A program made the translations under genes and the position numbers. Below, in pieces: positions 1,811-57,109 of a stretch of DNA of 64,000 nucleotides. The notes below the pieces were generated by a model. The model did no database searches. It was given only the letters and a program-made list of their open reading frames with translations, and was not told where the DNA came from. Within the stretch, counting starts at the first letter, position 1, and each line of letters starts with the position of its first letter. The stretch covers positions 62,001 to 126,000 of the forward strand of contig JYFJ02000112.1 of the NCBI GenBank assembly GCA_000934665.2. The letters run 5' to 3'. The DNA comes from Catajapyx aquilonaris (lineage: Eukaryota).

Positions 1811-4555
1811 TCATGTCAGCGTTTCACCTTTCGTCACCTGCAAAGAAAATAATGACAATTAGATACAGGTAAGTACAGTACATAATAAAGCTCTGCAGTA
1901 AACCACTAGCAACAACTCAGGTATCACTGTGATAACATTGATTGCTAGTAACCATTGTACTGTTCATACATCTTGGTAAGTTCCAAACATTCCAGTTCCT
2001 GACACAGAGCTAAACCAATGATGACTTTCTATGAGTGGCATTTGAGATACACCAACTGCATCTCTGTCATTGTTGCCAAGCAGTAAGCCTCCTTATTTTA
2101 TTTGGGTGGAGCCTAGAAATGAGCAAGGTCTGTTGCTAAGTAACCGGAAAACCTTCATTATTTCGGCCAAACTGTGAGGAGGAGGTCTAAATTTTTTGTG
2201 TCTGAACCACTACAACAAATTTCAAAATGTTTTTGTTAGAGGGGCTCACGTCTTTGGTAAAGAAGGTAGTCTACTTCGTTTCTCCTCCACATAAAGGTAG
2301 GTATAGGGTTAAGAGGGGGCAGTTTTAAAAGTGTTTTAAATGGTTTAACAATACTTTACAAGCAGGTTACCGTATGATCTAGAAAAGTTTCCATGAGTTC
2401 CTGACTAACTCGGAATTGTATCGGGGATTTATTTGTTTTTATTTGGTGGTCTGGCACAGTGGCTATGGAATTAATTCCTGAAGTTGGGACAGGTTTGGAA
2501 TCTGCATGCTTGGCCCCCACGATGTTATCGCCCAGGCCAATCCTGGAATAATTGATGCATTGCCCAGGTTACGATATTCACTGCACTGCTTGGCCATGCA
2601 TGACATATCAATCCACATTGACTCACACCTGTGACCAATTTGATGAATACGATTCACATCTTGCGAGAAAGCAATATAATCTGACAAAAACTCAATAGAA
2701 TGTCATCAGCCTTGTTTCGTGTTGCCTACTTGATCCCTACACCCTAGCGGCCTAGCCCTGTCCCATCATGCCACATCCTGCAGATTCGATTACATTGACT
2801 CCTCCAGGCCTTATTTATGTAATCATTTTCAATCACTCGTATACCTAACAACATTATTTCCGGTCCCACAAGATGGACAGTACTTGGTGCAGTCACCCCA
2901 AATACATACAGCTAACACCGACACAATCCTAAGTGCACTTTTTCAGTGGATATTGTAACCTATAGTGTGGAAAACAAAACAACAATCTGACGTCATCAAG
3001 GTTTCCCTGGAAATACCCTCCCAGAACAATCTGAGTAAACAGTGTCAACATAAAGCAACAATGGAAGAAACGATGACGTCAGATCGTTGTTTGGTTTTCC
3101 GCACTATAGGCAACATATTGATTCCAGGACCGGCCTGGGTAATAACATCATGGTGACTGAGCTTGTACAGCGCATACCGGACCAGCTTCAGGAATTAATT
3201 CCACAGCCACTGTGCCAGACTGCCAGGTAAAACCCAGGGCAAATCCCTGATCCACAATGTTACACTTGGTTGGGAACCAATGGAAACTAGTTTCCGCATT
3301 GCACAGTAACACACTTGTAGAGTTCAGCCCCTTGTTCCTATTACACTGTATGCTTATTCATCTCTTTTCTGGTAATCTAAAAGTACCGATTTCATTACTT
3401 CCCGTAGTTGAAAGTAACTGCCATTCGTCCCATTCAAACTGACGGAGACGGCCAAATATGATGTCCTAATTCCACTGTACATGTGTGAGAATGGGTTTTC
3501 CTCTCTAAAATATTTATTGTTTAGAACATCTACAGATCTCAGTAATGACAATATGAAAATTATCCCAAGCCTGGCATTAATAATACCAAAATGCCATTGT
3601 TTTTTTGGGGGGACGGACAATGGCAGTGGGCAGTGACTTGAAATTGTCACAAGTAACCAGATAATTTTTCCATACCCATAATTTATTCCTTATTGACCTA
3701 TCCCAAATATTACAGTAACATGCTGAGATCACAGATCAACATTAAATTTATTTCCAGTCAAACCCAAGCCCACCAATAGGACAGACATCCTGGCTCGGCC
3801 CAAGAGGGAGCATCCTGGTGTCATTCACGACTACACGCTTCCAAGGAGTGTTCCTCCCGAAGCCCTCGTGGTACACATGCACTGGTATTATACTGTACAG
3901 TAATTATCATCATCATTGTTACATTATCAGGCCGTTGCAAGTCCCAGGATTCAAGAGTTAGCCATCCCGAAGCATTTCACACCAAAATACGTCTCTTCGG
4001 ACACCCGCCGAAACATTGAAAGAAAAAAACGAAGACACTCTACATCAAGTTCTGGCAGGTCCGTGAAATCTGTATGACTGCAACCGGTGCAAAATCAAGA
4101 ACTGGATCACCATGCGGCCTTTAATCTGGATACCCCCCAAATAAAACCATATGGATTTAGTTACCCGTGCTTCCAAATATTCTATTTTCCTCTCCAGCGT
4201 GGTCAGCTTCTCATTCAGCATCGCCAAACGGGAACGACACGACATGTCTGGGGGGAAAAAAAAGTGCACAAGTTTTATGAGACAATACGGTTCATAATAT
4301 GCTCAGCATCAGTTCGGAACCCTTCGAATCGAACTACGATGACCAACTTCCTCTTTTGATCAGTGGGCGTGACCCCCTTCCCAACAGAACCGGGTACCCT
4401 CCCCCAAATAAATAAAAACTATTAATACCAAAAGAGTTGAGGAAGTCCGCAATCTTCTTGATGGACCCAGTGATGACCTCGATGTACTCCCGGTTGGCCC
4501 AGTCCTGCTGAATTTGCTTCTGGATCGCCTCTCTGTGAACTGCACCGGCAGCCAT
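1811..4555 (-). CDS. BRK1: BRICK1/HSPC300, WAVE regulatory complex subunit; exons 4555-4429, 4247-4165, 1837-1811 (78 aa)
   Basis: Spliced product [78 protein letters not shown] closely matches the BRK1 family. GT-AG junctions; 127+83+27=237 nt, in frame. Confidence 0.97.
2353..3323. mobile_element. Old fold-back/MITE-like element with long degenerate inverted arms (~2353-2587 and ~2934-3323) in BRK1 intron 2
   Basis: Left arm gtctggcacagtggctatggaattaattcctgaag is the reverse complement of cttcaggaattaattccacagccactgtgccagac (1 mismatch). Weaker similarity continues for about 200 bp. Confidence 0.7.
2963..3106. mobile_element. 144-bp MITE with ~35-bp TIRs and TA target-site duplication (Tc1/mariner-type)
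   Basis: TA|tagtgtggaaaacaaaacaacaatctgacgtcatc ... gatgacgtcagatcgttgtttggttttccgcacta|TA; TA at 2961-2962 and 3107-3108. Confidence 0.8.
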
Positions 4556-19800: not shown

Positions 19801-22800
19801 CTGGGATGGGTGGGGTCTACTATGAGGTCACCACTAAAGAGGAAGAAGTGAGCCAGAATGGTTTATTTGACCAAAAATTAAGGCGGCATGCATAATATAG
19901 TCACGATTCCATCTACAGAAAGAACTTCAGTTCTTTTCTGACTGAAGTTTTTTTTTTTACCACGAACACTCTTTCAGCCTGTTGGCTTCTCAGGTTCTTT
20001 CCCCATGCCCACCATCTTCCCTTTTTTCTTTTGCGGTTACACATGGCACGCATTCAGCAAGTTCGACTGACGAGGATGGGTTTTCTGGGAATGCCCCAGC
20101 GGACTCCAAAAGAGGCCTTGTGCTGATTAGAAGCCACAGGCGCACTGAAAGAAAAAGAAGGCACCAGAAGAAGAAGAAGAAGGAAGCAGCCCCCAAAAAA
20201 ATGGCAAAGTCTGGAGTAATCTGTGAAATGGATTTTCTCGAAAGGAGATGCAGACGAGGGATCGACCGCAAGATTTTTTCCCCCGATACTAATGTGTGCG
20301 ATGAATTGAGATCCGGTATCGGGAGAGCGCATGCTGATGCGTATAACGTGTAGTCAAAAATGGCTGCGGAACGAGCAATTATCGATTCATGCATTGTGTT
20401 CCTATTGATGTGGATGTTTCGTGAGTAGAGACAATGCGGGGGTGTTTGCTGGAAAAACCCCCCAAATTTTCACGAGAATTTTGCACTATCTAAATAGCGA
20501 GCTGTATATAAGTACAGTACCGGATCGATCACCATGGTGTCATCAATTACAATATAGCCTGATTTAATTAGCCGCGCATCCCTACGGCTATTAACCAGCA
20601 AATCATTGGATTAGATATATTGACAGGGGGATATTGGATAAAAAATTGGCGGGTTGGGCAGCGGGTGGTCAGTTCATATTCCGGGTGGAAAAATCCTCAG
20701 GGGGATGCGCCCCCTGGAGGAATGCAAATGACCAGCGTGTGTGTGCCAGTGGTGTCCCCAGTGGGACCCACTCTTCTCGGCTAAAACACAAATGTAATTA
20801 CAATTCTTGCAGATCAGGTCGTTGAACCTTTAAAGAATCGATCCCATTTTTTTTTGGAGCATATCGCGCCTTTAAAGCCTAAAAATGATGACATCAAAGA
20901 GATTTATCAACTGGGTTGCTGAAATATGACGTTGAAAGATTGCAGAATTTTGCACAGTATGCGGTATATATCGTAAGTCTGATCCCAAGGGGGATTTCCC
21001 GTCGAGACGATTCAATTGGTGGAGATTGGCTTTGATACAGAGTGGAACGCCCGCTGAAGCCCTGAACCTCACTGGGATATAATGGAACTTTTAATCCATT
21101 TACGGTTGTGTTTGCTGTTTTTTTGTGTGTGTGTGTGTCGACAGAAGACCAAGAAATAGCGTGCTTTTTTTGGTTAGTTCTGTACGTGCACAATTTGGAG
21201 TAATGAAACATTTTTGTGGACTACTTCCGCATACGTGAGTCGCAGTGTCACGAGTTGCATTAACGATGTTTTTCATTCATCACTAGCCGCAAAAATGTTT
21301 CGTTTTTTGGGCAGCTAAAAAAAACGCATTAGTGGGTTTTCGTGGATGGGCAACATGGCATTAAAACGTGTATTTGCGTGCTTACATGAAGTGACATTTG
21401 CATGCAAAATTTTCTGGGCCAAAATGCCAATAGCAGGGCGGATCAAATATGAAAAGTGCATTATGCATATTATAAATTAACACATCATTTTGGAATGACT
21501 CATTCTCTCCACCCTCGGAACTCTAATCTTCCATGACAGAAACGGTTCTGCGGACAGTTACGACTGGTTAATTAATAAAAGACCTGTCTCAGTGCATTGT
21601 AATGGAGTGAGGCTTGGAAATTCCCATCCCCAGAAGCTACATTAGCATATCGATTGTTTGCAGCACCAGAAGTGCGTGCAACTTGGAACTTCTCTCGAAA
21701 TTTAGGTTTTGGGGGTCCAATTGCAGCCTAATTGTCGGCCAAAAATCGGTATCTACTCCGCCCATACATTTCCTTTGTTTGCGACAAAAGAATGGCGGGA
21801 AGTGTCTGGGAAAACTGGCCAATCAGGCTTCTCTTATTCAAGAAAAAGGCTTATTATAGGTCTTTAGGTTTCGCCTTAAGAAAAGAAAACCGGTTGCTGT
21901 ACATGTCAAGTAAAAATCTAATCATGCGAATGTACGAAAAAGCAGGTTTTTCTCGTTAGTATCGTCTTGTAGATTACAATATTGGATCTCAAAGGAAGGG
22001 GAATTTTGCATTAGGAAAAGTTTGTAGTTTGACGCCAAATTGAGGGGGGAGAGTCGATGCATAAAATAATGAGCAGGAGGAAGGCAAAGGTAAAAACTTC
22101 TGTTGGGGGGGAGAGAAGATAACGACATTAATAAGTTTTGCAGTGCGTGCAACGTTCGATATGAGCACCACGTGTGGCACAGAGCCTCGTTGGCGAATTT
22201 TACGGGTGAAAGTTGCGGAATCAGTGTCCCAGATAACATTTCCCCCGTGCCTGAGGGCTAATTACTCACAAGAGCCGGTGAAAGTTTACACCCGTAACTT
22301 TTTTTTTCTTCAACATTTGACAAGTCCACACGTTCCTTGCTTGGAGGCGCTTGAGAGCCTGCTTAGTACTTGCCAAAAAATCAAGTTCATGGTGTGTGAA
22401 GCTGCCGGGTCGTGTAATAAACGAGACATTGCGTGGACCACGTATCGATCAACGCCAAAAAAGAATCCCCCTCCACGTCCATTTTCAGAATTCTGGGGGA
22501 CAACGTTGCTGTCAATCGTAGTGCGTGCGCCACGTTCCAGGCGATTTATGGCCATCTCGTGAACTCTAACGTAAAATGGGTGTGTTGTAAAGGTCATACG
22601 TAGTATCCATTATTATAAACAATGCTTGGTTTTCGTCAGTTTTCGTGGTGCATTGTGGCAGGGTCCAGGGTCGTACTGTATTGGTCTCTGCCCTCCCTGT
22701 ATATAAATACTGCATTATGGCTTCGTATATTTTAGTCTGCTTTACAACCAGTTTTTACTGCTTGTTTTCGCCTATTTTTGCACCTCCATGCTGTTTATTA

Positions 22801-25800
22801 TACCTCGAGATTTACCCGGTTATTGAGCCTCTGAGGCAACTAAGGCCATACCAATTCCTCGACATATGTCCCACCACTCTGTTTATGCCGTCTCCGAGGT
22901 CGCTCATTGTTAGCACCTGTGCGACACACGCACTTCCGCGTGATGGGGGCAATGGGAGGTTCCGCACACGGGCCACACGCACAAGAAGCCCTGCGTGCGA
23001 CGTTGCCGTGGTAACACGGTTTGGAGAGGGGTTGGTCCAAAAGAGAAAAGCATCGGTGCAGCTCCTGTGGCGGCGGCATACAACTGCGCAGCTCACCCCT
23101 CGAAAGGCAGGCTAGGGGGAGAAGAGAGACATCGGTGGGCAGTGGAAGAGAGCGCAAGCCTGGGGTCCGGACGGTCCAAAAACCGGGTAACCCCCCACCA
23201 CTACCACCACACACACCACTCTTCCTTCCAAACCCCCTCCGAAAAAACCTTTCTGGAAAACACAGCTGCCCCTTCTTCCTCCTCCCCACTTTCGTCCATT
23301 CTCTGGTGGCGGGTCTTCCCTTGTGCAGCTTGGCCTCCGTCAAGGCTAGGTAGTGATGGTGAGGTGATGTGAGACTGTACCGGCTCGGGGGAACAAAAAA
23401 CCATGTTCCAGTGTATTATCCAACAACGAAACGGCTGGATTCACAACAATCCGGACCTCAAAGAAGTCTTCCCAGGTACGGTTTTATCTTCTGGCCGTCT
23501 TATCGGGTGTGTACAGTACGCCGCAAGTAGCTGTCATTCATTGTGAAGGGTCAGTATGCAATGTAATAATTGCACAGAATTCTGTCAAGGACACTAAGGT
23601 CAGGCCATATCCCGTGCGGTTTAATCCTCAACTTGCAGAAAGTACTGGCACCGTTTAATACGGTTGATACTGTAACACCTCATTAGGGGCTAATTTTGGC
23701 ATACCGTTATGTACACAATGTGTCGGTCGTTGATCTTAACCTTGCAGACAATGCGTCTTATTTTTCCTCCGCCGTTGATATAATAGTCGCGTTTCAATAT
23801 TGCGATTAAAATAGTGTGCACTGCAATTGAAAGTTGATTGCGGCATGGATGTGCGTTGGTCCACATCATTTCAGAGATGAGTGCGGAGAATCACAAAAAA
23901 ATGTGCCCTTGAAAGGCGCCTTCCAGCCGCAGTCCATGTGTGTAACAATGTTGGCGGGAAAGGCAGGAAGCCGGGAATTTTTTTTTTGCCCATAATTATA
24001 CTCGGCTCATAATAAACCTAACTAGTTCGAGCAATTTTTTTTTGCCGTTGTACTGTGTGCGGGGGAAGCTCAGTTTTGTCGAAATCATGCCAACTGCGAA
24101 TATATGGAATCGATCTTGAAACGCCACCAAAAACTTGGGAGCTACGACGTCACACTTTGGCCCGCCTGCAAAACGTTGCGGATGACGTGGGTCGCACCGA
24201 TTGGTCCGGACCATCCAACCAATCATTACGTGTCACACTCTTTTAACCAATCAAATGTGCGTCACAAAAAACCACCGGATCTGTGTGTCTTTTAACCAAT
24301 CAGACCCGTACGATGCAAAAACACCGGTTCTATTTATTTTAAAAAAAAAATCTTAGTCAGAAGTCTGAAACCAACAGGTGCACAATGCATTTTGAATGAG
24401 GCAGTGAGATGATGGCTTGGGTTTTTCCCTGATCTTTTTTGGACAACCGGTCCTATTTCCAACCTTGGGCGTCGGTAGCGTCAGCAGCGACAGAGGCTGG
24501 GGAAATCGATAGAAAGACCGGGAGAGAGAGGGAATGAGAGAGAACTATGGAAAGAGGATTGGTGGGTGGGTAGGTGCAACCCTCCCACATTTGGCCAGAA
24601 AACGATCAAAAAAGAAGAGGAGGAGGCCCATCACATTTGACTCTCCGATCGTTACCATCCCTTCTGGCCACCAATCTGTTTTTGAATGAACCTATTGTTG
24701 TCCCATGGCCGCCTGAAGCGATTTGTAGAAATTACTCGCCTGGTGTCGTTTCGGACACTGCCTAGAATTTTTTTTGGAGATCCAGAATTTTTTTGGGATC
24801 CAGATGGGGGTTGGAAAGAAAACCTTTTGATAGCCATCCTTAGGGGGAAAAAGGGGGGGAAAAAATGTAGAAAAGGGGAAAGGGAAAAAAAAGCTGGTTC
24901 TTGTACTCTGAGGCTTATCCTGAGATTTATCTAAGTTTGGGCTGTGGGAAAAGTGGGGGGCTGGAAATAATCAAAATATTGAGTGAATACTAGAATTTAA
25001 GGAATGTTAACAGCAGCCTAATTATCATTAGTGTAACGGCTTCATTTTTTTTCCAGTAATGTCCTTGGTGGACAGTGCAATCTGATGATACTGAAAATAG
25101 CGGTTCTTATCATGGAGATAACCCTTGTGAAGTGTCAGGCGCCATGTTGGTGTGGGTGATCATTCACCTCTTCTTTTAATTGCCAACTTCCGTTCATTAA
25201 GCATGCAGTGGGATGCTGCGAAATGGAATTTTCACCTCGAATTACAGGGGAATCTTGCATCACGTCCGATACCGGACCTTGGGCGTGATTTTGCCAAAAA
25301 CGACCTATGGTTAGTAGCATCCTCTTCTGTTACGCCGAGGTAGTCGAGCATAGAAAGTTTTTTAACTTTTGAAGTAAAAAAGTTTGCTAGCTGGTTTTTG
25401 TCTTCAGCACACGTTTGCGCTTCACCAAGTCTTCTTTAGAAGGGGGCTATGCAAAAGAAAGAAAAAATTTTTTGCGGATGTGATGGGAGAGGATGCGAAG
25501 AAATTCGGGAAATCGTGCTTGGACTACCCAAACTTTTCCATTAGTGAATAGCACAAGTCGCGTCACTTTTTGCAGATTTTGCAGTAAATTTCCGGCCCTT
25601 AATTTTTTTAAATGGCCATACGGATAGTTTACATTTGCACTATGGGGTCAGCGACCTTTCGCAATGAAAGTGGTCTGACATCATCAACCCCATTTCAAAT
25701 TTTTTATAGCCAACGCGAGTAATGTCAAATTGAATCAGTCGAGTTGGTACCACATTGATCGAAAAGTTGTGGGATTGGAAAACGTGAGTTGGAAAAATGT

Positions 25801-49146: not shown

Positions 49147-51149
49147 ACAGTTCTTGTTCTAAGAATGACAAACCAGGTTACAGTCTCAGAACATGTTCTA
49201 ATTTTGTTTTCCTCTCCCCTTCTCAATTTCTTCCCCCAAAGTTCCAAAGGCTGTGAAAAAAAAAGACTCCTTTCATGTCGTGAAGAGGATGAGAATACTG
49301 GTTAATTTTTTTTGTATCAACTCTTCTCTTCCACATTATTCTGTAATAACTTTTTCTTTTGCAGTGTGAATGCTTGGCGGGGAAGAATTTTTACTCAGTA
49401 TTTTAATAGATGAGAGCGCATGATTTAGAGCGATTTAGAGAGAGTCTTTGTGGCCAAGTATTTTAATACTGTCAAAAGTAGCGAGTGCAAGGCCTTCCCA
49501 AGAGTTTAAAAAAAAAAAGGTAAATATGGGGGGCGAAGCCAAAAGCTGTAGCCAATATAAAACCAACGAGACCAACATGTACATTTTTTTGCCCTCTGAA
49601 CCTGTAATATAATAATGATGTAATGTAAGTGCATGAATTTGTAGCCAGTTATGTTGCCATGAGCCTTACATGAAACAAAAGATAAATAGTGTGTAATGAG
49701 GACTGACAATCCTGTTATGTTAAAAAAAAAATTATGTGTATCTGTGTTTTCACTCGTTTTCTGTGTTGGAGCGGAAATGGAAGAGGATGTGTATGTACCG
49801 ATATAGTATACGAATGTGTACAGTCATGTAAAACAGGCTGCGATGGATAAGAGCCGAGAGTGTAGTGTGTCATCTCTAAAAAATTATAATCATTGGTGGA
49901 TCAAGTGTGCATAGATGATAGTCGAAACGTGGCGAAGTTTAATAGTAAATTTTGGTGTGTCTTCCTTTCCAAATTTTGATTTGTATTGCGCTTCCATACT
50001 TGATTCTTGTTATTATGAGTCAAACTATTGCATTTCTTTGTGAGTAGCCTGCAGTATAGGTATATGCGTACTGTCAGTAGTATGTTGACTTTTATGTGCA
50101 ACAGTATTACATTTAAAAAGTCATGTCGCTCTGTTTTGTAGAGCACTTTCGTTTTCATGTTGCGGTGCGTCCAACGTAACCACTTGTGCGTTAGAGGTGT
50201 AGTTCACATCACGTTTTGCTCATTCCATAATTAATTGACTGTGTTTGCTAGAGGCCTTTTCCATTAATTCATTCAAATTTTTGCAACTGTAAGGGTGACA
50301 TAAATGACCAATAAAAATAGATAGCTACATCATATTTTTAGTTGTTGAATTAAGGTAACAAGAATCCTCATATACATCACAGTTAAACAGCACGTTACTC
50401 CATACCATACAGTACTTGAAGGAACGATGCAAGTTGAAACATACATCATGATGATGCAAATATTTTGTGGGTGTTCGCTCTCTCTAAAAATAATCCTAAA
50501 GTACTTTTGACTTTCCTGGTGCCACACTGTCGGAAACTTATTGACGCAACAGCCAGTCTCCAGCATAGGGTTACTCGAATTGCAGATTAGCAACTGGGTA
50601 CCATAAACTGCATCATTTCACAGATTTTAAAAAAAAGGAAGAGATAAGGATAATCGTCAGAAACTGCAGGCTGTAATTCCTTTGCATTCAACAACTAGGG
50701 ATTTTCACCAGACATGTTCGTTGAACCCTTCGTGAACCAATTTCTTTGCAACTGCACCCTCATGTAACTGCTTTTTATGTCTTCATTTTTGAAACTCAAT
50801 CCTAAATCCTAGTAATTTAGTAGGGTACGGTTAAGGTGTTAATTGCAGAGTGTCCCCTACTCCATGGATATACTCGTACATACCTAGGCTACCATTAAAA
50901 TGGGAAGGTCAATTCCCACAACTTACAATAATATTTGTGCTGCATATCATTATCAGGATCCCAGAGATTCAGCCACTATTTTGTGCATTATGCATGTGTA
51001 TTTTTATTTATACTGCTTCAAGAACCATGGAACGCATCAACGGACGCAACGAAAACTAACATGAACAATAGATTGCCTAGAGAGTCGATGCAACATTTTG
51101 GGAACAAGAAACCATCCAGCGTAACAAATTCAACAAAACCGTGTGAGAT

Positions 51150-51829
51150 TCATGCGGCGTCACCTGGATGTAGCTGGTTTATGAGGAGTCCAAGCTGCTC
51201 CTTGTGCTGTTCTTCCTCATCAATCAACTGCATCCTGAACTCTGCAAGGTGGTCAACGAGACCTTGCAGGGTGTTTGCGGCCTCCTGCACCTTCTGGTCA
51301 GTCTCCTGGTCCATGGCTCTCCACTCCTGACACATTGCTGCGAGGCCGTCACATACGGACTTGAGTGGGTCGGATGATGGATCTGCTATGCCACCATTAG
51401 GAGGTGCATCTCCCTGCACCATCATGGATGGGTTATGGACCTGCAAGGGCCTGAGGGGTTGGAAGTGAAGTTGCTGGGGTACCACCCTCCGCATGATGGG
51501 CTGATTCCGCCGGATACCACTACGGTTCCTCCTACGCCTGTTGAAGACAAGCACTTTACTGGCTACACTCTCACTGCGGAACGTACAGTAGGGATGTGTT
51601 TTAACCTTATTGTCTGCTGCTGGTTCTGCCCCACCATCCTGGGCTGCTCAGGTGCTTCGTCTGCACCCCAATGGTCCATGAAGTAGGCATCGTTGCCCGC
51701 CTGATGGTGGGCCGCCTGCACCCCACCACTGGCACGGGGGTCAACCCAAGGGTCTAACCCTCGGGGGTTCCGCCTGTCAGGGGCCGCCCTTGGGCTGAAC
51801 GACTCTGGCTGCCTGAGGCCGTTCGACAT
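51150..51829 (-). CDS. Uncharacterised protein, palindrome copy A; exons 51829-51606 and 51537-51150 (203 aa)
   Basis: A 68-nt intron (AG|GTTAAA...TTCAACAG|G) joins ORFs 51563..51850 and 51150..51554 in frame (224+388=612 nt); paralogous to copy B. No family recognised. Confidence 0.65.
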
Positions 51830-51989
51830 ATCCTTCCAGCAATCAGACAAAGGGTTGAAGGTGAGACTGTGGCTTGCTGGATGAGGTCAGGCCCTGACCT
51901 CCACTGTTCTCTGAGAGGTCGAAGGTCACAGGGAAAGTCTCAGCACCACAGACCCGTCTCAACTGGGGTCAAAAGTAAGTGTTCCATTC

Positions 51990-52103
51990 GCTCCGCCCAC
52001 TTCAGATTCCCGCCAAATTCTGACCAATCACGGCAAGGCGATGACGTCAACAAATGAATGGTGACGTCATACGCTCTGGCAGGCTTTATAAACTTGATCT
52101 ACA
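51990..52103 (-). promoter_or_regulatory. Putative promoter of copy A (two CRE, CCAAT, E2F-like site, GC box), mirrored at 53100-53225 for copy B
   Basis: TGACGTCA at 52042 and 52062, CCAAT at 52024, TTCCCGCCAAA at 52007-52017, CCGCCC at ~51993. Copy B has TGACGTCA at 53134 and TTTGGCGGGAA at 53197. Confidence 0.5.
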
Positions 52104-52200
52104 TAAAACGTCAGTAGTAATAATAATGCAACATATTTAATTTCATATTTTATTCCTGTCGTGCTCATCACGAGGTATTGGTGGAGTACGTTAGTAACAA

Positions 52201-52550
52201 TCACCCACAGTAACAGGTGGGCCCTGTGCAGGTTCCAAAGCTGGCGCCAAAATCGGTGCAGATTTTGTTGCAAAGTCGGGTTCCTAATGATCCGAATAGG
52301 CAGAAGTACAGCCGAGGTTGTCGCTGAGACGATACAGCGTCGTCTACCGGTCCTGAGAACTCGGTTCCATCCGGTGCACCATCGGCCGCTGCATCATCTA
52401 CCGGTATACCCGTCGGTTCCTGATCCGTCGAAGAGACTGCAACAATAACATGGGATTGAAGAAGTGTGTGCAGGAACTTACCATGCATGTGGACTTACCA
52501 CAAGTGTATGCAGCGAGCAGGACGAGGAGAAAAAAAGGCGCAGCAGCCAT
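52201..52550 (-). CDS. Insect-type (CS-alpha-beta) defensin prepropeptide; exons 52550-52499 and 52436-52201 (95 aa)
   Basis: Signal peptide MAAAPFFLLVLLAAYTCVSS, acidic propiece, RQPR, then LYFCLFGSLGTRLCNKICTDFGASFGTCTGPTCYCG*; spacing C-x9-C-x3-C-x9-C-x4-C-x-C with GxC. 62-nt phase-1 intron G|GTAAGT...TTGCAG|; AATAAA on the minus strand at 52154-52149. Confidence 0.9.
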
Positions 52551-52619
52551 GACAGGTTCCAAAAGGACGAAACAAAAACTGCGGCGACTTCAGAGCTAAC
52601 TCTTCGTACAGTTGGTGTA

Positions 52620-52920
52620 TACTGTATTAATATATGCTATACGCCTCTGGCCTATATACCCACCATGTTATCAAAATTTATTGCTGTGCAAGTAAATAGT
52701 TAAGATTCTCACTAGTACATTTAGGGTGGGCTTTCGGCTTGGGATTTCCAAACCAGCGCGGCGGGGGTAAAAGAATTGCGTTAAATATATGCATCCATTG
52801 GGATAAGTGACTATATGGCCGGTATCACCGAACAGGTTTTTATCTAGGGGCGATAATGAGAGAGGGGGGGGGGAGGCGATAATGAGGAATGAGCAGTATT
52901 TTCTGGGTAAAAACCCCGCA
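52620..52920 (-). promoter_or_regulatory. Putative defensin promoter: TATA-like, kappaB-like and GATA motifs
   Basis: TATATA at 52653-52658; GGGATTTCC at 52741-52749; GATAAG at 52802; GGCGATAATGAG twice (~52848 and ~52875); GGGTAAAAACCCC at 52905-52917. Confidence 0.5.
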
Positions 52921-52921
52921 T

Positions 52922-53012
52922 AAACCTTATCTGCTGCTGGTTCTGCCCCACCCACCATCCTGTGCTTCGTCTGCACCCCAATGGTCCATGAAATGGGCAT
53001 CGTTGCCCGCCT
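52922..53012 (-). pseudogene. Third, fragmentary copy of exon 1 of the palindrome gene
   Basis: aaccttatctgctgctggttctgcccca...gtgcttcgtctgcaccccaatggtccatgaa...gcatcgttgcccgcctg matches 51603-51702 with indels. Confidence 0.75.
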
Positions 53013-53383
53013 GGTGCAAACAGAAATATTGCCCTATTATGTTGTTCTTTTAAGTACAGAGAGCTCTATTATTGTCTCTACCTGCATAGCAGTATTCAAT
53101 GTAGATCACATTCATAAAGCCCGCCAGAGCGTGTGACGTCACAGTCGATGACATCACTATTTGTAGACGTCATCGCCTTGCCGTGATAGGTCAGAATTTG
53201 GCGGGAATCTGAAGTGGGCGGAGCGAATGGAACACTTACTTTTGACCCCAGTTGAGACGGGTCTGTGGTGCTGAGACTCTCCCCTGTGACCTTCGACCTC
53301 TCAGAGAACAGTGGAGGTCAGGGCCTGACCTCACCCAGCAAGCCACAGTCACACCTTCAACCCTTTGTCTGATTGCTGGAAGG

Positions 53384-54220
53384 ATGTCGAACGGCCTCAG
53401 GCAGCCAGAGTCGTTCAGCCCAAGGGCGGCCCCTGACAGGCGGAACCCCCGAGGGTTAGACCCTTGGGTTGACCCCCGTGCCAGTGGTGGGGTGCAGGCC
53501 CACCACCAGGCGGGCAACGATGCCTACTTCATGGACCATTGGGGTGCTGCAGACGAAGCACCGGAGCAGCCCAAAATGGTGGGGCAGAACCAGCAGCAGA
53601 CAAGGTTAGAACACATCCTACAATACTGTACGTTCCCCAGTGAGAGTGTCGCCTGTAAAGTGCTTGTCTTCAGCAGGCGTAGGAGGAACCGTAGTGGTAT
53701 CCGGTGGAATCAGCCCATCATGCGGAGGGTGGCAAGCCAGTTAGGGCAATGTCAGTGCCAGCACCACACGAACGGGCAGTTGTCCCATGGCCATGACTAC
53801 AACCCACCCACGATGGTGCAGGGAGATGGGAATGGCCCCCTTGTACCCACCATGCAGCGGATGGCACCTCAGCCAGGGCAACGTCAGCGTCGACGCCACA
53901 GGAACATGCAGTTGCACTATGGCCATGACTACAACCCATCCACGACCACGATTATGGTGCAGGGAGATGGGGATGATGGCTTCCATGCACCCCATCCTAA
54001 TGGTAGCAGAGCAGATCTATCCTGCAACTCATTTGAGTCCATGATTCGAATTCGACATCAAGAATTCAGGGCACTGGTTGCCCAATGTGCAGAGAGGCCC
54101 ACCACCAGGGCCATTCAAGGCCTGATTGACCACATTTCAAGGACCAGAACCATTTCTATACAAAACATGACCAGAATATGGCGCCAACTAGATCCAGATG
54201 ACTGCCCAGTTAATTTTTAA
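53384..54220 (+). CDS. Uncharacterised protein, palindrome copy B; exons 53384-53604 and 53677-54220 (254 aa; a 278-aa read-through is also open)
   Basis: 72-nt intron AG|GTTAGA...TTCAGCAG|G at the same position as in copy A; 221+544=765 nt. No family recognised. Confidence 0.65.
   Translation: MSNGLRQPESFSPRAAPDRRNPRGLDPWVDPRASGGVQAHHQAGNDAYFMDHWGAADEAPEQPKMVGQNQQQTRLEHILQYCTFPSESVACKVLVFSRRRRNRSGIRWNQPIMRRVASQLGQCQCQHHTNGQLSHGHDYNPPTMVQGDGNGPLVPTMQRMAPQPGQRQRRRHRNMQLHYGHDYNPSTTTIMVQGDGDDGFHAPHPNGSRADLSCNSFESMIRIRHQEFRALVAQCAERPTTRAIQGLIDHISRTRTISIQNMTRIWRQLDPDDCPVNF
53715..53990 (+). repeat. Internal tandem duplication (~132-bp unit, 2 copies) in copy B
   Basis: QLSHGHDYNPPTMVQGDG versus QLHYGHDYNPSTTTIMVQGDG; copy A has a single unit (HNPSMMVQGD). 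Confidence 0.8.
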
Positions 54221-57109
54221 TGTATGATGCTTTTTCCTGTCCCCAATTTGATACTATACTGTTGACAGGTGTTTTCTTCTTGCACACACAAGCATGTTGA
54301 TCTATTGATGTCCATCCATTGTTAATGTTCAGTTTTGTTGCATCAGGATCAGTTAGTTGTTGGTGTATAAAGCAACGGTTTCAGGATTTATCATGTTATC
54401 ATTTGACAATATCAGGACCCATTGGGACACTGTCCAGCTTCAGTGGTACTCCTGATGCAGATGTGGGCTAAATTCTGAAACACAGCAGAGGTCTGCTAAT
54501 CGAAATTGGGTATTGATGTCACTTGCATTTTGCTAGCTTGAATTTCTGCCACTGTGGCATCAGTACTCAACTTCCGACTCTGCCACTAAATACAGCAGTA
54601 GAAATAGTAACTATTCAACAGTCACTAATACCAGCTAAAATTTGTATTTCATCATTTACAACAAAAATTACAAGGTATGCAGTCAAAACAATATGATGCA
54701 TCATACTCCATGCACTTAAGTCACCAGAAACAGGTCTCATACACCAAGATCTGTGGCTAATGTAACAAAAATACCAATGATCTACTAAAAACGTTGCAAT
54801 TTTTCCCCCCCATCTCATACATGCCCATTTATTCAACATAAAATGAAAAAGAATGATTCAGATGATGATGACAGTACAAGAAAAAAAAGAAGCGAATATT
54901 ACATGTCTGTACAAGCAATTATACTCTACAGCTGGTACTCCACTCTAACAGCAGATGATAGACTAGGATTAAAAACCTCTAGTAGAGTCAAAATAAAATG
55001 CACGGGGGGCTGTACATTTTGATTGGCAGAACTCAATGACAAGAGCGGCACGTACATGCACACAGCTGCAATTACACCCTGCAAAGGGTTCACCGCCAGA
55101 CATACTCAAAAATAACAACTTCAGCTTACTACATACACAAATGCATGCTCAATACTCTTTCTAACTACAATTTCCATCAGTAATTTTTCCGTGCTTATAA
55201 AGTTTGGAATGAGCTATGAAATATGCTGCATGTTTGCATGTCGGGAGGAATAATTTTACAAAGAAAGCACAGAAAAAAAGGTATATTCCAATCATAAAAG
55301 TACAGAACTATTGCACAATAAAAACAGTTTCACCAAAACTGTCACGTCTGACAGATACTTTTTTTTTTTGACGTAACTTATCTACAAAACAAGGGCATAA
55401 TTTATCAACATTTTTGCCACCGAAGAACACACACATCACCATCCACAATTTTCATGATTCTTACAATACAGTACTGGTACGGTACTAAAAACAAGTAGAT
55501 TGGCACGAATGTAACGTCACACTCATGTAAAAGTAATGAACAAAGGATTGCTTCTGTTTTCAGAAGAACAAAAATTTTCATTTCTACTCTAGAATAAGTT
55601 AGCGAATAAATACCCAATACAATAACATTAACAAGACGAAATATTGCGATAAAGAAAAGCACTCATAGTGATGATGCAGCATCACGATTTTTCCATCCCA
55701 AGTAACACTGATTGGTAAACTACACACGGTGATATTGAACTCGCAAACTGGCAATGATTTCGAGAGTAAATTAAGTCGCCTTCCTTGCTTCCCATAAATT
55801 TGATCCAACAAGCGAAACGAAAAATGATTACATCCGTGGCCATATGACAAAATCATGAAATAAAAGAATGCTAAAAAATATACATCCAGAGTTATGGGCG
55901 ATCACATGTAACACATCCCACATGGACATCTATAACAATGCATACAAATATTTTTTGGAGGGAAATAGAGAGTCAGCAAGTCTGGTTTTTTTTTCTTCTT
56001 CCATTTTTAAAAACCTAGTCTACAACATGAGATTCACATTTTTTTCCAGTTTTATTTAGTGAAGGTGAAATAATCCTGAGAAACCACAAAATAGTGGAGT
56101 TATCATCCTCTTTGGCACATCAGGCCGTCCGTACGGTCCTAACAGCTTGTCTTGCTTCCCACAGTTTTGACTGCTGACTAGCAATGGAAAAAAAAAGTAG
56201 GGTTTAAAATAATTTCAGCTGTGCCTATTAGTCACCTGGATCTCCACAAATCTGTTCAACTGATCTTTACTTCTGAAATCTAAATGCAAAAAAAAGTGGC
56301 ATAAGCTGCTGAATGTTTTGACTAGCAACAGCTGCACCACAAAAAATAATCACACAGGGTGTTCCAATTCAAATGATCTTAGCAGTTAGCAATTTTTTGA
56401 CACAAAGCTGCTAATTAAGCCCCTTGCAATTCATGGAAGTCGTGATCTACATGTTACTTTTTACCAATCATCGCCGGTTTATCGTATATCTCACTACATA
56501 TGCCAAAGTATCAGCTCAACGTCAAAAAATTACTAACGATCGAGATCAATTTAAACAGATCACCCCTGTACATATATCTATAGCAAGGACAAAACACGAA
56601 GTAAAAAAAAAAAAAGTCATGTATATGACGCACAGCATCTGACAGGCTTTAAACAATAGTCATCACCATCCTCATCATCGGCCTCCGAATAAATGATAGG
56701 CTTGGGAGGCAGGAAAAAAATTATCAGATTAGAAAATTAGGGCAAAAATATAAACTTTTTTTTTGCTTGAAGCAACAAAACAAATTTAAGGATGACACAC
56801 ATGTGAAAAAAATTGGCTTATTATATACACTTCTACCCTGGGTGAAATGTCTTAACCTCCTTGTTCTTCTTCTGCAATAGTATGGTTGCTTCAACTACAG
56901 CATTTGTACTGTTACTGCCAAAAGAAACGGGTCCCACGTTGTCACTTTCACATGTACACAAGAATGGTTACGAGAAATAAAAATTGGATTTTTTCCCCCC
57001 CTTTTGAAATGATGACAGTTCAGCAGAGAAAATAATCACAGCTCACAGAGAGAGTCTCACTCACGCCATTGTTGTTGCAGGACTTTGATGACAAAAAACT
57101 ATTTTGGTC

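Follow-up and report, generated by a model that had tools for sequence, protein, structure and literature searches.

How do two copies of one gene come to lie head to head, nearly identical in one half and strongly diverged in the other, with an unrelated defensin-like gene shut in between them, and do the three genes belong together? The question is raised by a stretch of 64,000 nucleotides (nt) of the Catajapyx aquilonaris genome (contig JYFJ02000112.1 of assembly GCA_000934665.2, positions 62,001 to 126,000 of the forward strand), which is referred to here as the window and whose own coordinates are used throughout. An earlier note on this DNA had described a palindromic cassette in which a defensin gene is enclosed by an inverted pair of genes. 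The arrangement is probably explained by an old head-to-head duplicate of an orphan gene, the 5' halves of which were recently homogenised, together with an independent defensin-like gene in the spacer. The adjacency of the three genes would then be a by-product of local rearrangement in the stretch, poor in genes, where the 3' ends of srGAP and ewg/NRF1 face each other.

The inverted arms were mapped by an inverted-repeat search, MAFFT and BLASTN, and the interval 51040-54345 was compared with the whole window by self-BLAST. Nine inverted repeat pairs jointly tile the two arms. In its extended form, arm A (51407..52104, minus strand) takes in gene A from its promoter and 5' untranslated region (UTR) through exon 1 and the intron to nucleotide 58 of exon 2, and arm B (53099..53828, plus strand; core 53165-53734) takes in the same parts of gene B. 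The near identity first claimed for the arms is borne out, as the cores (51480-52049 and 53165-53734) agree at 545 of 562 aligned positions (97.0%). The spacer measures 994 nt when counted from one extended arm to the other and 1103 nt from one best-matching block to the other, consistent with the 1 kb or so originally estimated, and the complete defensin gene that the earlier note placed there is indeed intact, with its splice seen in the sequencing data discussed below. Self-BLAST returned the two arms, a tandem duplication within arm B and a 94-nt fragment in the spacer, besides which the window holds no further arm copy. This fragment, a relic of the 3' end of the arm-gene exon 1, lies at 52923..53016 on the minus strand, in the orientation of gene A and upstream of the defensin promoter. 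It shares 95-97% identity with the arms in ungapped blocks, and 83% overall when a 10-nt gap is included.

The profile of identity along the alignment of A and B carries most of the argument. The promoter and 5'UTR are identical at 213 of 218 positions, exon 1 at 214 of 218 (with two of the three changed codons synonymous), the intron at 62 of 68, more diverged than exon 1, and the first 58 nt of exon 2 at 56 of 58. From there agreement drops to 54 of 73 positions in the next stretch of exon 2, then to 119 of 238 in the remainder and 53 of 108 in the 3'UTR, an abrupt descent from 97% to 74% to 50%. Judged by their alignment scores, the 3' halves and 3'UTRs are homologous though only about 50% identical: the C-terminal coding part attains a local score of 42, compared with a maximum of 27 in 300 shuffles, and a 3'UTR block scores 35 against a shuffle maximum of 28. 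Because the 3' parts are homologous but diverged and the 5' part is 97% identical, the whole gene appears to have been duplicated long ago and its 5' half made alike recently. The youth that the earlier note ascribed to the module would therefore belong to the 5' halves and not to the duplication itself.

In the history that we favour, an inverted duplication of the whole gene would have come first, followed by divergence of the copies, including the appearance of an in-frame repeat in B. A recent ectopic (arm-to-arm) gene conversion, or an equivalent repair event, would then have acted over the 5' half, homogenising a tract that runs from the promoter through the first 58 nt of exon 2. Gene conversion seems the most likely mechanism for this last step. 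The exon 1 relic in the spacer and the abruptness of the steps in identity could also be read as traces of a recent partial inverted duplication or template switch, which would have produced the high-identity block by overwriting or creating one 5' half, without classical conversion, and left the relic behind. That account is unlikely, although it survives better than the other alternatives considered here. The homologous 3' halves and 3'UTR blocks have been kept, so a whole older paralogue pre-existed, and the overwriting of part of a paralogue by its partner's sequence is gene conversion by definition.

An old duplicate of a gene presupposes that the arms encode something. The coding region of gene A spans 51150..51829 on the minus strand, with the ATG at 51829, exon 1 at 51829-51606, a 68-nt GT..AG intron at 51605-51538 and exon 2, including the stop, at 51537-51150. 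It specifies 203 amino acids, and an AATAAA lies at 51003-51008 on the minus strand. Gene B (53384..54220, plus strand; ATG at 53384) would consist of exon 1 at 53384-53604 and exon 2, including the stop, at 53677-54220, separated by a putative intron of 72 nt (53605-53676) with the same donor and acceptor as in A. As this intron is in frame and free of stops, gene B is open either way, giving 254 amino acids when spliced and 278 when unspliced; neither AATAAA nor ATTAAA was found for it on the plus strand up to 54500. The outward-pointing two-exon open reading frames (ORFs) of the earlier note thus stand as to direction in both copies, and two exons are required in A and are presumed in B. 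Intron retention in gene B would keep its 278-residue frame open, while the 68-nt intron of gene A must come out. Exon 2 of gene B also harbours an in-frame internal tandem duplication (53714..53945, plus strand) consisting of two 100-nt units, 132 nt apart and 78% identical, of which gene A has a single unit. Tandem Repeats Finder returned no rows, this 132-nt duplication being too diverged for detection.

The pattern of insertions and deletions and the length of the frames support the view that the arm ORFs are protein-coding. All seven well-aligned coding indels between A and B are multiples of three (3, 3, 3, 6, 15, 162 and 15 nt), as against none of the five found in the non-coding promoter, UTR and intron (11, 1, 2, 4 and 2 nt). 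Moreover, the frame of gene B runs for 324 codons between stops, which makes it the longest among the 63 ORFs of at least 110 amino acids in the window. Run X5, a sequencing run of unrecorded kind, is taken as transcript-derived, since it carries the spliced form of the defensin-like gene and covers only expected exonic stretches. It contains a 155-nt contig at 51297-51451, of depth 2, within the A-specific part, which is weak evidence that gene A is transcribed. Copy B has no cover in this run, which says nothing on the expression of B.

By homology, the arm genes appear to be taxonomically restricted (orphan), fast-evolving protein-coding genes. A word-indexed search of 5.8 billion proteins, insect proteomes included, gave no match to the arm protein, and neither did an exhaustive phmmer search of 1.84 billion representative proteins at E ≤ 0.001, in keeping with the lineage specificity proposed earlier. 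No Pfam family reaches its cut-off for either arm protein; exon 2 of gene A draws three sub-threshold rows at E ≤ 10, the best with 16.1 bits against a cut-off of 24.7. A sequence search of the PDB with the arm proteins returned no match at E ≤ 1, and the ESM Atlas no usable one, with gene A exon 2 scoring 0.76-0.78, in the range of chance. Both proteins are highly hydrophilic (grand average of hydropathy -0.91 and -1.07), and sequence-feature computation found no hydrophobic N-terminus or signal peptide in either, so they are not expected to be secreted peptides. AlphaFold2 models gene A exon 2 as a low-confidence N-terminal part, predicted to be disordered, and one C-terminal helix of 66 residues with a predicted local distance difference test (pLDDT) score of 89-97. 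A homodimer prediction for this helix gave no verdict, with a score of 0.00. The arginine-rich run RRRRNR at the exon junction of the arm protein resembles a nuclear localisation signal, and a nuclear or coiled-coil role for these proteins is conceivable.

The gene in the spacer is of another kind altogether. As transcribed, it occupies 52158..52637 on the minus strand. A 418-nt contig of run X5 spans exon 1 (52637-52499) and exon 2 (52436-52158) and omits 62 nt with CT..AC ends, or GT..AG on the minus strand. Because this contig drops the intron (52498-52437, 62 nt) and the DNA runs retain it, the gene is transcribed and spliced as predicted. The ATG lies at 52550 and the stop at 52203-52201, and the poly(A) signals (52136..52154, minus strand) are an AATAAA at 52149-52154 and an ATTAAA at 52136-52141. 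The former is 45 nt from the outermost arm A similarity at 52104, on the same strand, exactly as the earlier note had estimated.

The precursor of 95 amino acids consists of a hydrophobic signal, at the end of which the intron is placed, a 42-residue acidic pro-region that ends in RQPR, and a mature part of 36 residues. The pro-region contains nine Asp and Glu against two Lys and Arg; the mature part contains two Lys and Arg against one Asp and Glu, and Leu, Phe and Gly are abundant in it. Its six cysteines, spaced 9, 3, 9, 4 and 1, include CXXXC and CXC. In Pfam, residues 44-77 match PF00537 Toxin_3 with 24.6 bits against a gathering cut-off of 21.5 (E 3e-5). This is the sole family listed for the peptide, with no match at E ≤ 10 to the arthropod defensin model, which we take to be PF01097 Defensin_2. 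A single-sequence AlphaFold2 model shows a helix at 50-62 and strands at 68-71 and 74-77 (pLDDT 86-90). Foldseek found no match to the peptide at E ≤ 0.001; of the 50 rows shown, nearly all belong to peptides of the cysteine-stabilised alpha-beta type, yet the best E-value is 0.87. These rows include scorpion K+ channel toxins, drosomycin, and insect, scorpion and plant defensins, and most superpose with a root-mean-square deviation of about 1 Å over 22-29 alignment columns. The closest solved sequence is BmK M4 (E 0.015). Among 5.8 billion proteins, one candidate shared words with the peptide and none scored, and a 15-residue string of the peptide was not found in the literature searched.

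Taken together, these features justify placing the product, on its sequence and predicted fold, among the defensin-like peptides of the cysteine-stabilised alpha-beta superfamily. The complete defensin gene of the earlier note is therefore real and, in X5, expressed, and it is defensin-like by the Toxin_3 profile and not by the arthropod defensin model. The peptide may be antimicrobial, but such a role is not assured, because the net charge of the mature part is only about +1 and the arthropod defensin model is unmatched.

If the three genes formed a functional unit, their control regions would be a natural place for it to appear. The promoter of gene A contains two perfect TGACGTCA palindromes (52042-52049 and 52062-52069), a motif that we take to be a cAMP-response element (CRE), along with a presumably E2F-like TTTGGCGG (52010-52017), a GC box (51993-51998) and a CCAAT (52024-52028). 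That of gene B (53134..53221) has TGACGTCA at 53134-53141, one-mismatch copies of it at 53149-53156 and 53165-53172, TTTGGCGG at 53197-53204 and a GC box at 53216-53221. Hence TTTGGCGG and GGGCGG are common to both arms, and the CCAAT, lost from B, is found in A only. Five copies of TGACGTCA occur in the window against 0.59 expected, a number reached in none of 100 shuffles, and three of the five are in the arm promoters. The other two, at 2988-2995 and 3074-3081, are 86 nt apart and may mark another promoter. In the defensin-like gene, a TATATAG precedes the start of the transcript contig by about 20 nt, and a single kappaB/Dorsal-type match, GGGATTTCCA, lies at 52741..52750 (plus strand), about 105 nt upstream of the same point. 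With GGGRNWYYCC and GGGWWWWCCM taken to be the kappaB consensus strings, the spacer between the defensin and copy B contains no match to the first, stricter string. The second occurs four times in the window where 5.5 are expected, so the match at 52741-52750 is not above chance. Of the kappaB-like sites that the earlier note saw between the defensin and copy B, this one looser match is what is left. On these motifs, the promoters of the arm genes and of the defensin-like gene look different in kind.

The same motifs bear on the earlier proposal that all three genes are induced together in an immune or reproductive module, where the arm genes would be effectors beside the defensin. The genes are tightly adjacent, one kappaB/Dorsal-like match does stand between the defensin and copy B, contigs of the defensin and of copy A occur together in run X5, and the 45 nt between the defensin poly(A) signal and arm A, on one strand, make read-through into gene A conceivable. 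Such a module is nevertheless very unlikely. The motifs in the arm promoters are of the CRE, E2F-like and GC-box types, with no strict kappaB site among them, the defensin-like gene has a TATA-type promoter of its own, and the lone kappaB-like match is not above chance for the window. The defensin contig stops at 52158, with no read-through seen, and the arm proteins are without signal peptides, which tells against a role as effectors. The three genes are separate transcription units; nothing in the sequence appears to couple the arm genes to the defensin, and their co-induction is unsupported. A bolder version, in which the orphan pair would be a new family of nuclear, helix-mediated regulators whose palindromic promoters, maintained by conversion, would be functionally tied to the defensin-like gene, for instance through shared chromatin or read-through, and the whole would be a lineage-specific immune or germline module of three genes born in the gap between srGAP and ewg, must be considered a long shot.

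The history of duplication and homogenisation also requires that the palindrome be real. Three DNA runs (X1, X2 and X3) from one sample, possibly the assembly's own data, were compared over the region. At the outer junctions, contigs from the unique flanks reach 51539 on the left and start at 53675 on the right; in X1 and X2 these contigs are 12.4 kb and 9.0 kb long. X3 covers the left junction with an 884-nt contig (50656-51539), its 11.4-kb contig stopping at 50551. The inner junction from arm A through the defensin to the relic is contained in a contig at 51996-52991, of 996 nt in X1 and X3 and replaced in X2 by two contigs, 143 and 883 nt long, that overlap, and the passage from the relic into arm B is contained in a 256-nt contig (52963-53218). 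All four arm boundaries are thereby bridged. The core of the arms collapses into one contig of 359-362 nt, with a depth of 50.4 against 31-32 in the flanks in X1, 25.9 against 22 in X2 and 39 against 23.5-29 in X3, or 1.2-1.6 times the depth of the single-copy flanks in every run. The collapsed contigs mix the variant states of A and B differently from run to run, and since they carry both states, both arm versions are present in the reads. Depth and junctions fit two copies and argue against a high-copy element, for which the earlier note had called for a check, and against a simple artefact.

An assembly artefact, such as misjoined haplotypes or a collapsed repeat, might take some encouragement from the single short-read contig of the arm core and from the common origin of the runs. 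It is highly improbable all the same, given that the 3' halves are very different and each runs on into a unique flank of its own, in addition to the bridged inner junctions, the two variant states and the raised depth. A mobile element, whether a foldback or a long terminal-inverted-repeat (TIR) transposon with the defensin as cargo, would also place inverted arms around a spacer, but it is hardly credible when identity peaks by the spacer and falls off through the coding sequence towards the outside without sharp termini, when neither a transposase nor any other Pfam domain is present, when depth is near two copies with no other copy in the window, and when none of the 18 loose contig ends listed, out of 22, falls at an arm boundary.

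The same runs display two further features near the arms. In X3, a variant contig at 50552-50655, of depth 6.7 compared with 23.5, differs by eight substitutions and a 2-nt deletion within about 100 nt of intergenic sequence, which suggests a divergent haplotype in the sample. A small dispersed repeat probably lies just beyond gene B, at 54416-54599 (core 54450-54485), where the contigs of all three DNA runs split into several continuations with loose ends on either side and, in sum, reach double the depth (71 compared with 32 in X1).

Several points weigh against the favoured history of an old duplicate with recently homogenised 5' halves and an independent gene in the spacer. Conversion and a recent partial re-duplication or template switch are indistinguishable without related genomes, and the 94-nt relic, so similar to the arms where it aligns without gaps, shows that one or more other recent rearrangements took place. 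The DNA runs share one sample and may be those of the assembly, and with the arm core collapsed they do not establish which way round the spacer lies. For transcription of the arm genes there is the depth-2 contig of copy A from a run of unrecorded kind, with the arm splice unobserved. Finally, given the small net charge of the mature peptide and its failure to match the arthropod defensin model, an antimicrobial role is less than assured.

The locus lies between two conserved genes. Pfam profile searches identify FCH and RhoGAP exons of srGAP on the plus strand at 40.3-44.7 kb and a Nrf1_DNA-bind exon of ewg/NRF1 on the minus strand at 59.4-60.2 kb (E 1.7e-84). On the srGAP side, the contigs of run X5 stop at 50325, 10 nt past an AATAAA, and on the ewg side they start at 54631, so the 3' ends of the two genes converge, as the earlier note had placed them around the unit. 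The 4.3-kb gap between these ends is mostly filled by the arm genes and the defensin-like gene, and an Rfam scan of 50000-55500 gave no match at E ≤ 0.1. Among the 120 best matches listed for the Ewg/NRF1 exon, 119 are 85-92% identical to it and come from insect proteins, one unnamed metaclust protein is 62% identical, and none approaches 100%; the top scores belong to mayflies, stick insects, locusts, cockroaches and termites. This pattern points to an arthropod host, probably a hexapod, with no proteome of its own in the collection. Farther upstream, overlapping perfect kappaB-consensus matches (GGGGATTTCC, GGGATTTCCC and GGGAAATCCC) occur at 20990-21000, before the first srGAP exon identified, and another perfect match at 21616-21625. 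At 22591-23415, long ORFs of 142-191 amino acids overlap on both strands in relatively GC-rich sequence, which could be a CpG-rich exon or promoter region of the upstream gene.

The locus is a small, clean example of an orphan family and a divergent defensin-like gene arising and being reshaped in an intergenic gap. It displays, side by side, an old inverted duplication, 5' halves homogenised recently with their promoters, an in-frame internal repeat and the remnant of an exon. The annotation of the genome gains three genes, at least two of them with transcript contigs. The locus also lends itself, as a test case, to the study of conversion between inverted paralogues. It involves no new kind of mechanism. 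The literature searched for an insect defensin with inverted duplication and gene conversion held nothing relevant, only work on human 8p23.1.

Each component of the locus has its counterpart among known systems. Like Toxin_3 peptides and arthropod defensins, the enclosed gene product combines the C..CXXXC..C..CXC arrangement and a predicted helix and beta-hairpin with a signal peptide, an acidic pro-region and an RXXR site. Unlike arthropod defensins, it leaves the Defensin_2 profile unmatched and its mature part has a net charge of about +1; unlike the scorpion toxins, it comes from a hexapod-like arthropod and not from a scorpion. The arm genes resemble orphan genes for disordered proteins in having no detectable homologue, low complexity, rapid divergence of the paralogues and an in-frame internal repeat. 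They depart from typical cases in that their coding status rests on the pattern of indels and the length of the ORFs and not on annotation, with thin expression evidence. The sharp terminal repeats that are the hallmark of foldback and long-TIR transposons are absent from the arms.

Palindromic pairs of paralogues under ectopic conversion are familiar from the palindromes of Y chromosomes. The feature that marks such conversion is present here as well, in that the tract of high identity spans non-coding and synonymous sites, with 545 of 562 positions identical compared with 119 of 238 and 53 of 108 beyond it. In Drosophila, Hsp70Aa/Ab and Amy-p/Amy-d are described as palindromic paralogues with ectopic conversion and concerted evolution (PMC3924832). 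The likeness extends to geometry, with mirror-image paralogues, an orientation that the same paper describes, lying a kilobase or so apart. In contrast to Hsp70Aa/Ab and Amy, the homogenised tract here covers only the 5' half, including promoter and intron, the gene is an orphan and not a member of a conserved family, and an unrelated third gene sits in the spacer. The locus is, on this comparison, a new instance of known processes, in which orphan paralogues under conversion have come to enclose a divergent defensin-like gene.

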